Of a stretch of DNA of 64,000 nt, positions 1-20,394 are shown one piece after another. Position 1 is the first letter of the stretch; the number at the start of each line of letters is the position of its first letter. The notes beneath the pieces were generated by a model. The model was not told the origin of the DNA and did no database searches. It saw nothing but the letters and a program-made list of their open reading frames with translations. Location: NCBI RefSeq assembly GCF_057098645.1, contig NZ_CM169472.1. One strand, given 5' to 3'. Made by a program: the position numbers and the translations under genes.

Positions 1-141
1 AAAAGCCGGAATGTACTCTTTATTGCAAACATTTCAGGGATGAAGTGAAGATGAATTGAGACGTAGTATCCACACCAAGCCGGCGTTATCCGGTGAGGCG
101 CAATGTTGCGGGGGCTTTATCCCTGGTGGCATTGGTTGCTG

Positions 142-212
142 GAAAGAGAAAACCCCCGCACGTTGAGAGGTAAAACCTGACAACAAAACGGGGGCTAATC
201 TTGAAACCAGAC
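142..212 (-). ncRNA. rdl: Rdl-type cis-antisense RNA (antitoxin of the ldr unit); coordinates approximate
   Basis: Position about 48 bp upstream of ldr on the opposite strand as in described LDR units; minus-strand 6-bp inverted repeat (+ coords 190-195 / 153-158, ~30-nt loop) followed by a T-rich tract (complement of 141-152). Confidence 0.4.
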
Positions 213-259
213 ACTTCAAGAATAGCCGCAAAATGTTGTCATTACAACAAGGCGGCTAT

Positions 260-367
260 ATGACGCTCGCGCAGTTTGCCATGACTTTCTGGCACGACCT
301 GGCAGCACCGATCCTGGCGGGAATTATTACCGCAGCGATTGTCGACTGGTGGCGTAACCGGAAGTAA
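260..367 (+). CDS. ldr: Ldr 35-aa type I toxin peptide (MTLAQFAMTFWHDLAAPILAGIITAAIVDWWRNRK)
   Basis: ATG 260, TAA 365-367; below the ORF-track size cutoff; sequence of the Ldr family. Confidence 0.85.
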   Translation: MTLAQFAMTFWHDLAAPILAGIITAAIVDWWRNRK

Positions 368-414
368 GGTGAAAACGGGCGTCAGGCTGCCGTGATGGCA
401 ATATGCGCCCGAAA

Positions 415-450
415 CCGGCCGCAGGGGTAACAGCCTGCGGCCATTTTTGT
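415..450 (+). terminator. Rho-independent terminator of ldr mRNA
   Basis: GC stem ccggccgcagg / cctgcggcc followed by atttttgt. Confidence 0.7.
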
Positions 451-677
451 CTTTATCACTTCCACAAGTAAATATTGGCAACCCGAGCTGGAAGCATCAT
501 CCAGAGCACTCATGAAACGACTGTAACAGCTGTTGAAAAACCGGAATGCACTCTTCATTGCAAACATTTCAGGGATGAAGTGAAGATGAATTGAGTCGTA
601 GTATCCACACCAAGCCGGCGTTATCCGGTGAGGCGCAATGTTGCGGGGGCTTTATCCCTGGTGGCATTGGTTGCTGG

Positions 678-748
678 AAAGAGAAAACCCCCGCACGTTG
701 AGAGGTAAAACCTGACAACAGAACGGGGGCTAATCTTGAACCATCAAC
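678..748 (-). ncRNA. rdl: Rdl-type cis-antisense RNA, copy 2; coordinates approximate
   Basis: Same relative position in LDR copy 2 (536-bp offset). Confidence 0.4.
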
Positions 749-795
749 AATTCAAGAATAGCCGCAAAATGTTGTCATTACAACAAGGCGGCTAT

Positions 796-903
796 ATGAC
801 GCTCGCGCAGTTTGCCATGATTTTCTGGCACGACCTGGCAGCACCGATCCTGGCGGGAATTATTACCGCAGCGATTGTCGGCTGGTGGCGTAACCGGAAG
901 TAA
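796..903 (+). CDS. ldr: Ldr 35-aa toxin peptide, copy 2 (MTLAQFAMIFWHDLAAPILAGIITAAIVGWWRNRK)
   Basis: ATG 796, TAA 901-903; differs from copy 1 at two residues (T9I, D29G). Confidence 0.85.
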   Translation: MTLAQFAMIFWHDLAAPILAGIITAAIVGWWRNRK

Positions 904-950
904 GGCGAAAACGGGCGTCAGGCTGCCGTGATGGCAATATGCGCCCGAAA

Positions 951-986
951 CCGGCCGCAGGGTAACAGCCTGCGGCCTTTTTTGTA
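951..986 (+). terminator. Rho-independent terminator of ldr copy 2
   Basis: Same GC hairpin followed by a T-run (ccggccgcagg...cctgcggcc tttttt). Confidence 0.7.
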
Positions 987-999
987 TCCGGCACCCATG

Positions 1000-1037
1000 A
1001 AAAAAGTCTTAACGCAGAACGCTAAGACTTTATTTTT
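1000..1037 (-). terminator. Terminator downstream of kdsA (A-run / hairpin / T-run, possibly bidirectional)
   Basis: aaaaaagtcttaacgcagaacgctaagactttattttt. Confidence 0.55.
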
Positions 1038-1050
1038 CCAGCAAAAAAGA

Positions 1051-1914
<864 letters not shown>

Positions 1915-1940
1915 TTAATCTTGAGTAAAATGTCGATTAA

Positions 1941-2750
1941 TTAATGCAGCACAATATGTTTATGCGCGATGTTATTTATTTGCGCACGGATCATTTCGCT
2001 GATCGGGTCTTCCGGACATTGTTCAACGAAATAACTTAAATCGTTCAACGCAACGTGTTCGCAATCCAGTTGCGCATAAATCAACCCGCGATCGCGAATT
2101 TCATAGGGATCTTCAGGGTTGAATTGTAATAAAGCTTCGCTGGTGCGTAACGCCAGCTCCATCTGATTTTCTTCCATCAACGAGGCTTTGAGTGTGTCCA
2201 GTAATTTGCGGATTACCTCAATGTTATCAGCTTCATCAAGGTCTTCATAAAACAGTTCCGCCGACGGGCTGATATTTCCCTTTAACCATACGTCCAGCAT
2301 ATGTTCGCTTAACGATTCACCGTTAAAAGGATTAATCAGCCAAATTTCGCCATCCGGACATTCAATGCGCAATATCAGCTGCGTAGGGAAAATCACCGGC
2401 AGCAGCGGCAAATCGAGACGATTCGCGACCCATAATAAAACCGCACCTAATGATACCGCACTGCCCTGTCGATTCTTTAACACCTGGTCCAGCCATAATG
2501 CATCGGAAAGACGATAAACGCCGCGTGAGGCTTTAAATCCCCAGTCGCCGTAAAACAGCGCGATCAGTTTTTCCAGCTGCTCTTCTAAAGGCAGAAGCTG
2601 GCTGATTTCTTCCTTCGCCAGACTAACGAGACGCTCCAGTTCGTCGTAAACATCTTGCGAGGGAAAATCGCGGCGGATTGCTTCGCAAGCCAGGATCATG
2701 CCTTCGCACAATGGCGCTTTATTAAATTCGAAATCAGCTAACGATCTCAT
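1941..2750 (-). CDS. sirB1: SirB1/YchA family protein
   Basis: 269-aa ORF, synteny kdsA-ychA-ychQ-prmC. Confidence 0.85.
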   Translation of the reverse strand: MRSLADFEFNKAPLCEGMILACEAIRRDFPSQDVYDELERLVSLAKEEISQLLPLEEQLEKLIALFYGDWGFKASRGVYRLSDALWLDQVLKNRQGSAVSLGAVLLWVANRLDLPLLPVIFPTQLILRIECPDGEIWLINPFNGESLSEHMLDVWLKGNISPSAELFYEDLDEADNIEVIRKLLDTLKASLMEENQMELALRTSEALLQFNPEDPYEIRDRGLIYAQLDCEHVALNDLSYFVEQCPEDPISEMIRAQINNIAHKHIVLH

Positions 2751-2753
2751 GAC

Positions 2754-3146
2754 TTACCCCAGTAACGGTACTTTTGTGGTGGCGAGTTTAATGATGATGT
2801 ACAGCACCACCAACGCCAGCGGGAAGGCAATAATGCGCGCCTGCTGACTGTGCATACGACGATAATCGAGTGCAATAAAACCCAAAACGATATAAATGAT
2901 AACTCCAAACAGCTTTTCAGTCAGCCACTGTGCCTGCCCGGAAAATGGCAGGATGTGCGCTTTAGCCATCAACGCAATGCCGCTTAACAATAACACCGTA
3001 TCGACAACCGGCGGCACAATGCGCGTCCAGCGCGCAAATGCCTGAGGATGCTTCTGATAACGTAGCCAGAAACGTAAGGTTAATAGCCCAACAGAAAGCG
3101 CGATACTAATAAGATGAACACTAAGCAGTGTAGAAAAACTTGTCAT
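2754..3146 (-). CDS. sirB2: SirB2/YchQ small inner-membrane protein
   Basis: 130-aa hydrophobic ORF, synteny. Confidence 0.85.
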   Translation of the reverse strand: MTSFSTLLSVHLISIALSVGLLTLRFWLRYQKHPQAFARWTRIVPPVVDTVLLLSGIALMAKAHILPFSGQAQWLTEKLFGVIIYIVLGFIALDYRRMHSQQARIIAFPLALVVLYIIIKLATTKVPLLG

Positions 3147-3976
3147 TGATAATAGCGGCCGAGCGTTACACGCTCGTTATCACCATAGTCACGGCAGGTT
3201 TCGACGTCATGATACCCCGCGAGGATAAATGCCTGTCGCACCGCTTCGCCCTGCTGCCAGCCATGTTCCAGAAGCAGAAAGCCGCCGGATACCAGCGCGT
3301 TACGCGACTGTTCGATGATATGCACGATGTCTGCCATTCCACTGTCTGCCGCAACCAGCGCAGTGAGCGGCTCAAAGCGGACATCGCCTTGTTGAAGATG
3401 TGGGTCCTGCTCGTCAATATACGGCGGATTGCTGACAATCATCGCAAACTGCTGCCCGGCTAGCGCGCTAAACCAGTCGCTTTGCAGAATGTGGATATTT
3501 TTGATCGCCAGATGCTGGGCATTACGTTGTGCCAGGGAGACAGCATCAGGCATACGATCTACAGCGATAATTTCGCAGTCCGGGCGCTCGCTAGCCAGCG
3601 CAAGCGCAATCGCCCCGGTACCCGTCCCGAGATCGAGAATACGGCAAGGTTGTTCAGGCAACCGCGCCAGTGCCTGCTCCACCAGACACTCCGTATCCGG
3701 GCGCGGAATTAAGGTCGCTGGCGAAACAAATAACGGCAACGACCAGAATTCTCGCACCCCGGTTAAATGAGCAATGGGTTCACCATCGCGACGACGTGTC
3801 AGTAGCGCATCAAGTTGCTGACATTGTTCGTCAGTCAGCTGCGTCTCACCAAAGGCGAGAATAAAAGTACGCCCTCTGCCGGTAACATGCTCCAGCAGGA
3901 TTTCAGCATCACGCCGCGGGCTTTCGCTCGCCTGAAGTTGGTTTATTGCTTCACGTAACCAGTATTGATATTCCAT
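3143..3976 (-). CDS. prmC: Release-factor glutamine N5-methyltransferase (HemK)
   Basis: 277 aa; motif NPPY (VSNPPYIDE); overlaps prfA stop. Confidence 0.95.
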   Translation of the reverse strand: MEYQYWLREAINQLQASESPRRDAEILLEHVTGRGRTFILAFGETQLTDEQCQQLDALLTRRRDGEPIAHLTGVREFWSLPLFVSPATLIPRPDTECLVEQALARLPEQPCRILDLGTGTGAIALALASERPDCEIIAVDRMPDAVSLAQRNAQHLAIKNIHILQSDWFSALAGQQFAMIVSNPPYIDEQDPHLQQGDVRFEPLTALVAADSGMADIVHIIEQSRNALVSGGFLLLEHGWQQGEAVRQAFILAGYHDVETCRDYGDNERVTLGRYYQ

Positions 3977-5058
3977 TATTCCTGCTCGGACAACGCCGCC
4001 AGTTGGTCGGCCTGATGTTCCTGGATAATCGGTTCAATCAGCATATCCAGCTTACCTTCCATCACTTCATCCAGGCGGTAGAGCGTCAGGTTGATGCGGT
4101 GATCGGTAACGCGCCCCTGCGGGAAATTGTAAGTACGGTTACGGTCGCTGCGATCGCCACTCCCCAACAGGTTACGACGGGTAGACGCTTCGGCCTGTTG
4201 GCGTTTTGCCATTTCAGCAGCGTGGATGCGAGCACCGAGCACTGAAAGTGCTTTAGCTTTGTTTTTATGTTGTGAACGTTCGTCCTGACATTCAACAACA
4301 ATCCCGGTCGGCAAGTGAGTAATACGAATTGCCGAATCGGTGGTGTTAACGTGCTGACCACCCGCCCCTGACGAGCGGAAAGTATCAATGCGTAAATCTG
4401 CTGGGTTGATGTCCGGCAGTTCTGCGTCAGGCAGTTCTGGCATTACCGCAACGGTACAAGCAGAAGTATGAATACGACCCTGCGATTCCGTAGCAGGAAC
4501 ACGCTGCACGCGATGACCGCCGGATTCAAATTTCAGACGACCATACACACCATCACCGCTAATTTTGGCGATGATCTCTTTATAACCACCATGTTCACCC
4601 TCGCTGGCGCTCATGATTTCTACCCGCCAGCGGCGGGCTTCGGCATAACGGCTGTACATACGGAACAGATCGCCCGCGAACAGCGCCGCTTCGTCGCCGC
4701 CGGTTCCGGCTCGGACTTCGAGGAAGGCGTTACGTTCGTCATCAGGATCTTTTGGCAGTAACAGAACCTGTAATTGCTGTTCCAGTTGCTCGCTTTTTTC
4801 TTTAGCTTCGCGCAGTTCATCCTGCGCCATCTCACGCATTTCAGGATCATCGAGCATCATCTGTGCGGTTTCGATATCTTCCTGAACCTGTTGCCAGTCG
4901 GTAAAACAGCGCGAAACATCACTTAACTGCGCATATTCGCGTGATAATGCGCGAAAACGTTCCTGGTCGGCGATAGTTTGCGCGTCACCCAGCAACGCCT
5001 GAACTTCTTCATGGCGTTCATGCAGGGCTTCCAGTTTGGCAACGATAGAAGGCTTCAT
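3976..5058 (-). CDS. prfA: Peptide chain release factor 1
   Basis: 360 aa; GGQ motif (SGAGGQHVN). Confidence 0.95.
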
Positions 5059-19323: not shown

Positions 19324-20394
19324 ATGAAAAAATTGATCAATGATGTGCAAGACGTACTGGACGAACAACTGGCAGGACTGGCGAAAGCGCATCCATCGCT
19401 GACACTGCATCAGGATCCGGTGTATGTCACCCGAGCTGATGCCCCCGTTACAGGAAAAGTCGCCCTGCTGTCGGGTGGCGGTAGCGGACACGAGCCGATG
19501 CACTGTGGTTATATCGGTCAGGGGATGCTTTCGGGGGCCTGTCCGGGCGAAATTTTCACCTCACCGACGCCCGATAAAATCTTTGAATGCGCCATGCAAG
19601 TTGATGGCGGCGAAGGTGTACTGTTGATTATCAAAAATTACACCGGCGATATTCTTAACTTTGAAACAGCGACCGAGTTACTGCACGATAGCGGCGTAAA
19701 AGTGACCACTGTGGTCATTGATGACGACGTTGCAGTAAAAGACAGTCTTTATACCGCCGGGCGGCGCGGCGTTGCCAACACCGTATTAATTGAAAAACTC
19801 GTAGGCGCTGCGGCGGAGCGTGGCGACTCACTGGACGCCTGTGCGGAACTGGGGCGTAAGTTGAATAATCAAGGCCACTCAATAGGTATCGCTCTCGGTG
19901 CCTGTACCGTTCCTGCCGCGGGCAAACCTTCTTTTACCCTGGCGGATAATGAGATGGAGTTTGGCGTCGGCATTCATGGTGAGCCGGGTATTGACCGCCG
20001 CCCCTTCTCTTCCCTTGATCAAACCGTCGATGAAATGTTCGACACCCTGCTGGAAAATGGCTCATACCATCGCACTTTGCGTTTCTGGGATTATCAACAA
20101 GGCAACTGGCAGGAAGAACCACAAACCAAACAACCGCTCCAGTCTGGCGATAGGGTGATTGCGCTGGTTAACAATCTTGGCGCAACTCCACTTTCTGAGC
20201 TGTACGGCGTCTATAACCGCCTGACCACACGTTGCCAGCAAGCGGGATTGACTATCGAGCGTAATTTAATTGGCGCGTACTGCACCTCACTGGATATGAC
20301 CGGTTTCTCAATCACCTTACTGAAAGTTGATGACGAAACGCTGGCACTCTGGGACGCCCCTGTCCACACCCCGGCCCTTAACTGGGGTAAATAA
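19324..20394 (+). CDS. dhaK: Dihydroxyacetone kinase, dihydroxyacetone-binding subunit
   Basis: 356 aa from ATG 19324 (MKKLINDVQ...). Confidence 0.9.
   Translation: MKKLINDVQDVLDEQLAGLAKAHPSLTLHQDPVYVTRADAPVTGKVALLSGGGSGHEPMHCGYIGQGMLSGACPGEIFTSPTPDKIFECAMQVDGGEGVLLIIKNYTGDILNFETATELLHDSGVKVTTVVIDDDVAVKDSLYTAGRRGVANTVLIEKLVGAAAERGDSLDACAELGRKLNNQGHSIGIALGACTVPAAGKPSFTLADNEMEFGVGIHGEPGIDRRPFSSLDQTVDEMFDTLLENGSYHRTLRFWDYQQGNWQEEPQTKQPLQSGDRVIALVNNLGATPLSELYGVYNRLTTRCQQAGLTIERNLIGAYCTSLDMTGFSITLLKVDDETLALWDAPVHTPALNWGK

Follow-up and report, generated by a model that had tools for sequence, protein, structure and literature searches.

Evidence for a two-module ldr/rdl toxin-antitoxin array at the chaA-kdsA locus of O145:H28-lineage Escherichia coli, with a proposed hok/sok-like control of Ldr synthesis

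The first 985 nt of the DNA stretch analysed here, a window of 64,000 nt from contig NZ_CM169472.1 of assembly GCF_057098645.1, very probably represent the LDR array of the chaA-kdsA locus in an Escherichia coli strain of the O145:H28 lineage. The array would comprise two self-contained ldr/rdl type I toxin-antitoxin modules, each with a gene for an Ldr toxin and an antisense RNA, Rdl, for which we propose an indirect, hok/sok-like mode of action. As far as sequence can test it, membership in the ldr/rdl family holds on every count, and nothing contradicts the identification, the mechanistic details being unproven. The ldr/rdl systems have been known since 1999-2002, and nothing at this locus is new in kind; it is already known and annotated.

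The global alignment of 1-450 with 536-985 shows 15 differences over 452 columns, including three indel events, which amounts to about 97% identity. A repeat search in the window resolves the homology into three co-linear pairs of direct repeats, 1-205 and 536-740 (98%), 211-426 and 747-962 (98%), and 425-450 and 960-985 (96%). The repeat period is 535 before the indels at 204-210, 536 after them, and 535 again past a 1-nt deletion at 424. Because of these three small indels, the period is either 535 or 536, and the toxin open reading frames (ORFs), which start at 260 and 796, are offset by 536. An earlier interpretation of the DNA from its letters alone (the sequence-only reading) had described two 536-bp repeats, and had taken the window to begin almost exactly at a repeat boundary. 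The repeat description is accurate with respect to the period, but not with respect to the shared length, which in the window is only about 450 bp per copy. The boundary has to be given up: in a near-identical O145 genome, the 25 nt just to the left of window position 1 (3976-4000 in the piece of that genome that was compared) agree with window 511-535 at 22 of 25 positions. The homology thus runs 25 nt further to the left, so that no repeat boundary coincides with the window edge. LDR unit 1, which is proximal to chaA, occupies 1-450 on the plus strand, with its left side cut by the window edge. LDR unit 2, which is proximal to kdsA, occupies 536-985 on the same strand, and agrees with K-12 LDR-A in its right flank and in the T-rich tail of its terminator. 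The spacer between the units (451-535, assigned to no strand) is absent after unit 2; its last 25 nt (511-535), which match the sequence to the left of unit 1 in O145 and K-12, are part of the repeat proper.

The gene downstream of the array is kdsA (1051-1905, minus strand). In K-12, the interval between kdsA and chaA carries ldrA/rdlA, ldrB/rdlB and ldrC/rdlC, in the order ldrC-B-A, and in near-identical genomes RefSeq names both ORFs of the window 'type I toxin-antitoxin system toxin Ldr family protein'. The naming and the synteny therefore identify the locus as the known LDR array. Tandem units of about 530 bp at chaA-kdsA, as expected for such an array, are found with the period of 535/536 and with flanks that are shared with the relatives and with K-12. 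The tandem LDR units that had been recognised in 1-990 are thus confirmed by alignment, by Pfam and Rfam, and by K-12 synteny. With respect to lineage, window 1-25000 is about 100% identical to E. coli O145:H28 genomes; for O145 RM9872, the identity is 100% over 25 kb and 99.8% over the array. Window 1-1100 differs from RM9872 at two positions only, 301 and 304, and both differences are synonymous. At these two positions, copy 1 has the base of copy 2 (837 and 840), unlike the O145 complete genomes. The agreement suggests, or would at least fit, a short tract of gene conversion between the two copies.

The sequence-only reading had also raised the possibility of additional copies upstream of the window. 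In the closest genomes, O145 RM9872 and strain 88-3493, the upstream flanks were read; in both, chaA lies upstream and ends 145 bp from window position 1. RM9872 has exactly two annotated Ldr genes between chaA and kdsA, and there are two also in 88-3493. With chaA directly upstream, the suggestion of further copies is therefore contradicted for those relatives. Within the 64,000-nt window, a search with the rdlD model and a pattern search found no third LDR unit, and a 36-nt Rdl-core pattern occurs twice, against 0.00 occurrences expected. More widely, 5425 of the 5426 complete E. coli genomes carry the LDR core; it occurs at 20,080 places in total and 1-11 times in a genome, the median being 4. 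Of the 59 chromosomes in a rank-spread sample, 14 have one unit at chaA-kdsA, 17 have two, and 28 have at least three. The array thus varies in copy number, with one, two, or at least three units all being common, and the count is therefore not guessable from the window edge. In one sampled genome (E. coli Z0117EC0056), an IS200C transposase gene was found inside the chaA-LDR-kdsA interval.

The two toxin genes, ldr-1 (260-367, plus strand) and ldr-2 (796-903, plus strand), encode peptides of 35 aa, MTLAQFAMTFWHDLAAPILAGIITAAIVDWWRNRK and MTLAQFAMIFWHDLAAPILAGIITAAIVGWWRNRK, respectively. Both span profile positions 1-35 of 35 of the Pfam family PF13940 (Ldr_toxin), with 90.0 bits (E 9.4e-26) for ldr-1 and 87.7 bits (E 5e-25) for ldr-2, against a cut-off of 27 bits. 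A phmmer search against the PDB aligned residues 1-35 to residues 1-35 of 5LBJ_A, 'Small toxic polypeptide LdrD' (E 1e-10). NCBIfam has a family for neither peptide, which is uninformative, as Pfam covers both. RefSeq annotates ldr-1 as WP_001400834.1 at the same place in O145, and ldr-2 as WP_000170954.1 in relatives. The peptides read as a hydrophobic helix followed by a cationic C-terminal tail (...LAAPILAGIITAAIV(D/G)WW-RNRK), a topology that agrees with the description of LdrA (PMC8309996). The list of ORFs contains the toxins as a 44-aa ORF (233-367) and a 55-aa ORF (736-903), because it starts each entry at the first in-frame start codon. Over-produced LdrA and LdrD form inner-membrane helices and cause ATP collapse within minutes, nucleoid condensation and growth arrest (PMC8309996, PMC12643268). 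LdrA, which makes ATP levels drop, is described as a pore-forming toxin, and over-expression of YajC counteracts both LdrA and LdrD (PMC8309996, PMC12643268). Growth arrest or killing on over-expression has been shown for K-12 LdrD and LdrA only (PMC4147584, PMC8309996, PMC12643268).

The assignment of both peptides as Ldr membrane toxins, already made from the bare sequence, is borne out by Pfam, by the homology to 5LBJ and by the RefSeq naming, and comparison of the translations confirms that they differ exactly by T9I and D29G. ldr-1 is the T9/D29 allele, and ldr-2 the I9/G29 allele. It is correct that the alleles differ, but to call them diverged overstates a modest difference. Sites 9 (I/T) and 29 (S/G/D) are the variable ones among the LdrA/B/C-type paralogs that were compared (K-12 A/B/C, E69 and the two copies of the window): K-12 LdrA and LdrC have I9/S29, and LdrB has T9/G29. 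In LdrD, residue 29 is N. The two toxin alleles are thus ordinary paralog polymorphism. The D29 peptide is present in public databases under the Ldr name, on at least 1000 contigs. The view that D29 is a common allele, which this number would support, was rejected: in an exact 30-mer search, no more than 26 of 5426 complete genomes contain the D29 codon context, each a single time, and every one of them is O145:H28-type. D29 is therefore a lineage marker and not a widespread allele, and the large number of contigs is probably due to heavy sequencing of the O145:H28 lineage.

The antisense RNAs had been postulated from their position. They are not merely positional: both match the Rfam model RF01813 (rdlD) over its full length (positions 1-66 of 66), with scores of 91.8 bits for Rdl-1 and 83.6 bits for Rdl-2 against a gathering score of 50. 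Rdl-1 is a 66-nt RNA at 147-212 on the minus strand (fold z = -5.1, terminator-like site 171-152), and Rdl-2 lies at 682-747, also on the minus strand (fold z = -4.5, terminator-like site 706-687); its true 5' end may be 747 or 748. The RNA folds into a 16-nt single-stranded 5' tail and a GC-rich stem-loop, which doubles as the terminator and is followed by UUUUCU. Rdl-1 and Rdl-2 differ at 5 of the first 7 nt and at nt 27. In both units, Rdl is antisense to the 5' untranslated region (UTR) of ldr and does not overlap the toxin's ribosome binding site or its start codon. In unit 1, the Shine-Dalgarno (SD) sequence is at 249-255 and the ATG at 260; in unit 2, the ATG is at 796.

For comparative purposes, 14 LDR units were aligned: the two of the window, K-12 A, B, C and D, E. 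coli E69, E. whittamii, three of Escherichia sp. E1V33, two of Pseudocitrobacter faecalis and one of P. vendiensis. The pattern scan of genome contigs behind this set yielded 8 stretches, none from Salmonella, which limits the depth of all comparative statements. A candidate Rdl-1 promoter can be read from the sequence at 219-247 (minus strand), with a -35 box TTGTAA (247-242), a 17-nt spacer, a -10 box TATTCT (224-219) and a start at G212. The candidate Rdl-2 promoter at 755-783 (minus strand; -10 box 760-755, -35 box 783-778) is identical. The arrangement TTGTAA-17-TATTCT is kept in 14 of 14 units and has 8 of 12 consensus positions, the cut-off of the scan being 9 of 12. For the toxin genes, the similarity of the LDR-A/B/C-type, LDR-D-type and Pseudocitrobacter units starts sharply at CGTAG(T/A)ATC. 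This onset of conservation points to candidate -10 boxes TAGTAT at 64-69 for ldr-1 and, by the same argument, at 599-604 for ldr-2 (both plus strand), with putative transcription starts near 76-77 and 611-612. As proposed earlier, each toxin gene has its own intrinsic terminator. That of ldr-1 (417-450, plus strand) has a 9-bp GC-rich stem at 417-442, that of ldr-2 (953-985, plus strand) a stem at 953-977, and both have a T-run. Six terminator-like sites were found, against 1.6 expected from shuffles.

The putative ldr-1 mRNA of about 375 nt (76-450, plus strand) would thus consist of a long 5' UTR, the toxin ORF, a conserved 3' UTR and the terminator. Among the aligned units, the coding sequence varies more than the 5' UTR (mean column entropy 0.40 versus 0.19), which indicates that regulation constrains the sequence no less than the peptide does. 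The 5' UTRs of LDR-A/B/C and LDR-D are near-identical, although the toxins are only 57% identical (PMC8309996). K-12 LDR-C has a 1-nt deletion in a G-run of the 5' UTR, at the equivalent of window 110-114 (GCGGGGGC to GC-GGGGC); this block is near-invariant in the other 13 units, one of which has a single C-to-T change beside the run. A predicted hairpin of the unit-1 mRNA at 199-221 (plus strand) has an invariant stem, TCTTGA 199-204 and TCAAGA 216-221, and a loop at 205-215. The equivalent hairpin of unit 2 is at 734-757 (plus strand), with stem arms 734-739 and 752-757 and the 12-nt loop ACCATCAACAAT at 740-751, a loop type that is also found in E. coli E69 and in unit c of Escherichia sp. 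E1V33. No other 12-column window of the transcript varies as much as the loop, of 11-12 nt (rank 1 of 373, entropy 0.84); columns 197-204 beside it, which include the 5' stem arm, have an entropy of 0.00. There are 10 distinct loops among the 14 units, and the two units of the window differ in loop type. The first 7 nt of Rdl are complementary to the loop (206-212 in unit 1), and the next 7 to the 5' stem arm. In the predicted fold, this is the geometry expected for tail-to-loop nucleation.

A candidate leader ORF, similar to the ldrX of the literature, extends from a TTG inside the Rdl target to a TGA stop that overlaps the ldr ATG (201-263, plus strand; ATGA overlap). Of the start codons in the segment complementary to Rdl, TTG201 alone opens an ORF that extends to the ldr start in 14 of 14 units. 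In unit 2, because of one extra nucleotide in the loop, the TTG frame is fused in frame to ldr-2, giving an ORF of 55 aa (736-903, plus strand), and the 55-aa form is annotated in some genomes. In Pseudocitrobacter, the leader ORF overlaps the ldr start by 20 nt. It appears that an open frame, and not a peptide, is maintained, which would fit a role in ribosome transit, although it is not statistically compelling; we treat this role as a hypothesis. Other leader starts were considered and rejected. The frame of ATG103 (25 aa) shows only non-synonymous changes in Pseudocitrobacter (Y to D, W to R twice, H to R) and is frameshifted in K-12 LDR-C, the frame of GTG93 (26 aa) gains a stop in Pseudocitrobacter, and neither codon lies within the Rdl target. 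The in-frame ATG at 233 is confined to A/B/C-type units, and is thus not a conserved feature.

The ldr-1 mRNA is predicted to be strongly folded, with a minimum free energy (MFE) of -163.5 kcal/mol and z = -6.35 relative to shuffles. In the MFE structure, the ldr initiation region (236-271) pairs with the 3' UTR at 375-400, and GGCGCA at 97-102 pairs with 402-407, so that the conserved 3' UTR segment (375-408, plus strand) would be engaged with both. The helices are retained in the RNAalifold prediction, and across the alignment, 97.7% of the cells in the long-range helices are paired.

How could Rdl control the synthesis of the toxin? Rdl (147-212) is off the SD sequence and the start codon (249-262), and some indirect link to translation is therefore needed. 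In K-12, the ldr mRNA is stable, Rdl is unstable, and Rdl represses toxin translation (PMC4147584); for RdlD, expression, instability and repression of its own toxin are all known (PMC4147584, PMC7373196). Inhibition of Ldr translation in a hok/sok-like manner, via the leader ORF ldrX, has been put forward in reviews as an unconfirmed hypothesis (PMC4147584, PMC8167048). In the mechanism that we propose, the single-stranded 5' tail of Rdl would nucleate on the loop of the conserved mRNA hairpin at 199-221. Rdl would then cover the TTG201 leader frame, the translation of which would otherwise bring ribosomes into the toxin start. The toxin start itself is predicted to be sequestered by the 3' UTR. 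Overall, this would amount to a hok/sok-like, indirect control of Ldr synthesis.

Several observations weigh against this proposal, or qualify the description of the array. The molecular mechanism of Rdl action is still called unknown in recent reviews (PMC8309996). The consensus promoter scan of 1-1100 found no promoter at threshold, so that the ldr and Rdl promoters are inferred from conservation only. Covariation in the long-range fold is weak, with one compensatory pair, and not significant, since 34 of 500 shuffles do as well. The two-copy count of the window's own genome is taken from near-identical relatives, because the window stops inside the left edge of the array. Finally, the leader ORF stands in three frame relations to ldr (ATGA overlap, in-frame fusion and 20-nt overlap), and it is statistically unremarkable to find two frames open over 60 nt. 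That the leader is conserved neither in frame nor in its peptide sequence would also favour a different mode of action, in which Rdl, without any leader ORF, acts mainly through a long duplex that has the ldr mRNA cut by RNase III and degraded, or by changing the structure of the 5' UTR. The predicted energy of the cognate full-length duplexes is -133 kcal/mol. Duplexes of ldrD and rdlD that RNase III has cut are plentiful in vivo, and the overlap of the two RNAs yields a product of about 21 nt that ranks among the most abundant double-stranded RNAs captured by p19 in E. coli (PMC7373196). However, the level and half-life of full-length ldrD mRNA are only slightly increased in an rnc mutant (PMC7373196), 'inhibit protein synthesis' is the action mode given in reviews (PMC4147584), and Rdl at 147-212 is without overlap to the SD sequence and start codon of ldr. 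We regard the duplex-and-decay mode as possible, though on balance improbable. It may further be asked whether the modules are insulated from each other. In this case, the loop and the Rdl 5' tail would be a specificity code, each Rdl would prefer its own ldr mRNA, and the copies could be regulated or lost independently. The top rank of the loop 205-215 in variability, its invariant stem and its 10 variants in 14 units are in line with this idea, as are the divergent first 7 nt of Rdl-1 and Rdl-2 and a non-cognate tail pairing that is weaker by 10-13 kcal/mol in the model. Cognate-specific repression has a precedent in the tandem Ibs/Sib family (PMC2943612). Yet the loop entropy of 0.84 equals that of the unconstrained upstream flank (0.84), and lack of constraint, or neutral drift, therefore explains the loop equally well. 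Moreover, duplexes of about 59 bp are still formed between non-cognate partners in the model (-117 to -120 kcal/mol), and the loop is identical in K-12 LDR-B and LDR-C. A literature search on cross-talk among Rdl paralogs returned nothing relevant and no experimental test. Insulation can thus be entertained only tentatively. Somewhat more doubtful still is the wider notion, by analogy, that a recognition code of loop and tail makes the two modules independently controlled and not redundant, and that diversification of the loop, and not of the toxin, may maintain multiple LDR copies.

Two further alternatives concern the array as such. Short-read assemblies can merge tandem copies of about 535 bp that are 97% identical, and many E. 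coli genomes have at least three units at chaA-kdsA, so that the two copies could represent the collapse of a longer tandem array. This is extremely improbable: the O145 genomes are all closed assemblies; RM9872 has exactly two annotated Ldr genes, and strain 88-3493 also shows two; ten more O145-lineage genomes match window 1-1100 over its full length at the same 99.8%; the 15 differences tell both units apart; and one-unit and two-unit states are frequent among complete genomes. One copy, most plausibly the one with D29, might be an attenuated or decaying paralog and not an active toxin, as G29D sets an acidic residue beside the cationic C-terminal tail. Cationic residues at the C-terminus are conserved in several type I toxins, and AapA1 needs them for its toxicity (PMC8309996), and Ldr genes decay elsewhere, for example by a W31stop in Pseudocitrobacter vendiensis. 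In unit 1, however, the ORF and the full Rdl gene are intact, as are both terminators, and the candidate promoters are the same as in unit 2. The Pfam score of the D29 peptide is slightly higher than that of the G29 peptide (90.0 versus 87.7 bits), LdrD carries a polar N at position 29, and the allele is kept in all 26 complete lineage genomes that carry it. Attenuation of the D29 copy is thus quite unlikely. The P. vendiensis homologue, with its premature stop (W31*) and an intact Rdl core, may be a toxin gene in decay whose antitoxin has been kept.

The closest relatives of the modules are the K-12 ldrA/B/C-rdlA/B/C units, which have the same locus, orientation, flanking genes and period of about 535 bp, and a near-identical 5' UTR, Rdl, 3' UTR and terminator. 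Unit 1 of the window has the K-12 B/C loop type and an LdrB-like T9, and unit 2 has an LDR-A-type right flank. In contrast to the window with its two units, K-12 has three, and residue 29 is G or S in K-12 where unit 1 has D29. The I9/G29 combination of unit 2 is absent from K-12, and so are the extra nucleotide in its loop and the resulting in-frame relation of its TTG frame to ldr. The experimentally characterised K-12 ldrD/rdlD (nuclear magnetic resonance structure of LdrD, 5LBJ) shares the architecture, the Rdl fold, the SD and start context and the conserved 3' UTR segment. Its 5' UTR core is near-identical from the -10 box to the hairpin, and the toxin aligns over the full length. It differs by its locus (bcsG-yhjV), by a toxin with about 57% identity (PMC8309996) and by another hairpin loop, and D-type units, unlike those of the window, have an extra in-frame ATG inside the Rdl target.

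Among the more distant systems, hok/sok (plasmid R1 and chromosomal copies) resembles ldr/rdl by its stable toxin mRNA with a long 5' UTR and by an unstable cis-antisense RNA that targets the UTR and not the toxin ribosome binding site (PMC4147584). Both have a proposed leader ORF (mok in the one, ldrX in the other) and a predicted long-range 5'-3' fold. In contrast, the toxin families are unrelated, the ldr leader frame is not conserved, and leader coupling and 3' processing are at most putative in ldr. The Rfam model sok (RF01794) matches the sense strand at 110-262 and 645-798, ending at the ldr AUG, with 30.5 and 27.0 bits (E 9e-5 and 8e-4), below its gathering score of 59. These matches fit the hok/sok-like organisation suggested in the literature, but they are a curiosity and no evidence of membership, the likeness being one of analogy only. 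The ibs/sib modules of E. coli are likewise type I modules on the chromosome, present in several copies, some of them in tandem, and have cis-antisense RNAs. Their cognate-specific repression is set by variable regions (PMC2943612), a feature that is only a candidate for ldr/rdl. The toxin and the RNA are unrelated, and Sib, unlike Rdl, overlaps the whole ibs ORF. Fst with RNAI-RNAII (par, Enterococcus pAD1) has been placed in one toxin superfamily with Ldr by bioinformatics, and both are small single-helix peptides with a charged C-terminus that cause nucleoid condensation when over-expressed (PMC4147584). The Fst system belongs to a plasmid of Gram-positive bacteria; its transcripts are convergent, and its antisense RNA has another geometry.

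Elsewhere in the window, Rfam models identify a C0299 small RNA (RF00119, 112 bits) at 47435-47513 on the minus strand and an ALIL pseudoknot (RF01497, 120 bits, of the Rfam type cis-regulatory element) at 50854-50970 on the plus strand. ALIL is the frameshift element of IS3-family transposases and would point to an insertion sequence in this part of the window. The region that corresponds to window 1-25000 spans 26,314 bp in two pieces in the O145:H28 complete genomes, and the extra 1.3 kb or so in them is probably an insertion sequence. A contig assigned to 'Bacillus sp.' (NZ_JABWSY010000055.1, 503 bp, 0.66x coverage) carries LDR-D-type Escherichia sequence, which is almost certainly contamination.

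Pfam and Rfam families exist for ldr/rdl, and RefSeq annotates this exact position, so that the locus has little weight as a discovery. It does illustrate that cut-offs for small ORFs hide real toxin genes, which the sequence-only reading recovered correctly from the raw sequence. Beyond this, the comparison of units provides handles on how Rdl may block Ldr synthesis, namely an invariant stem with a hypervariable loop that faces the Rdl tail, a TTG leader that is always open but shifts in frame, and a 3' UTR that is complementary to the toxin start.

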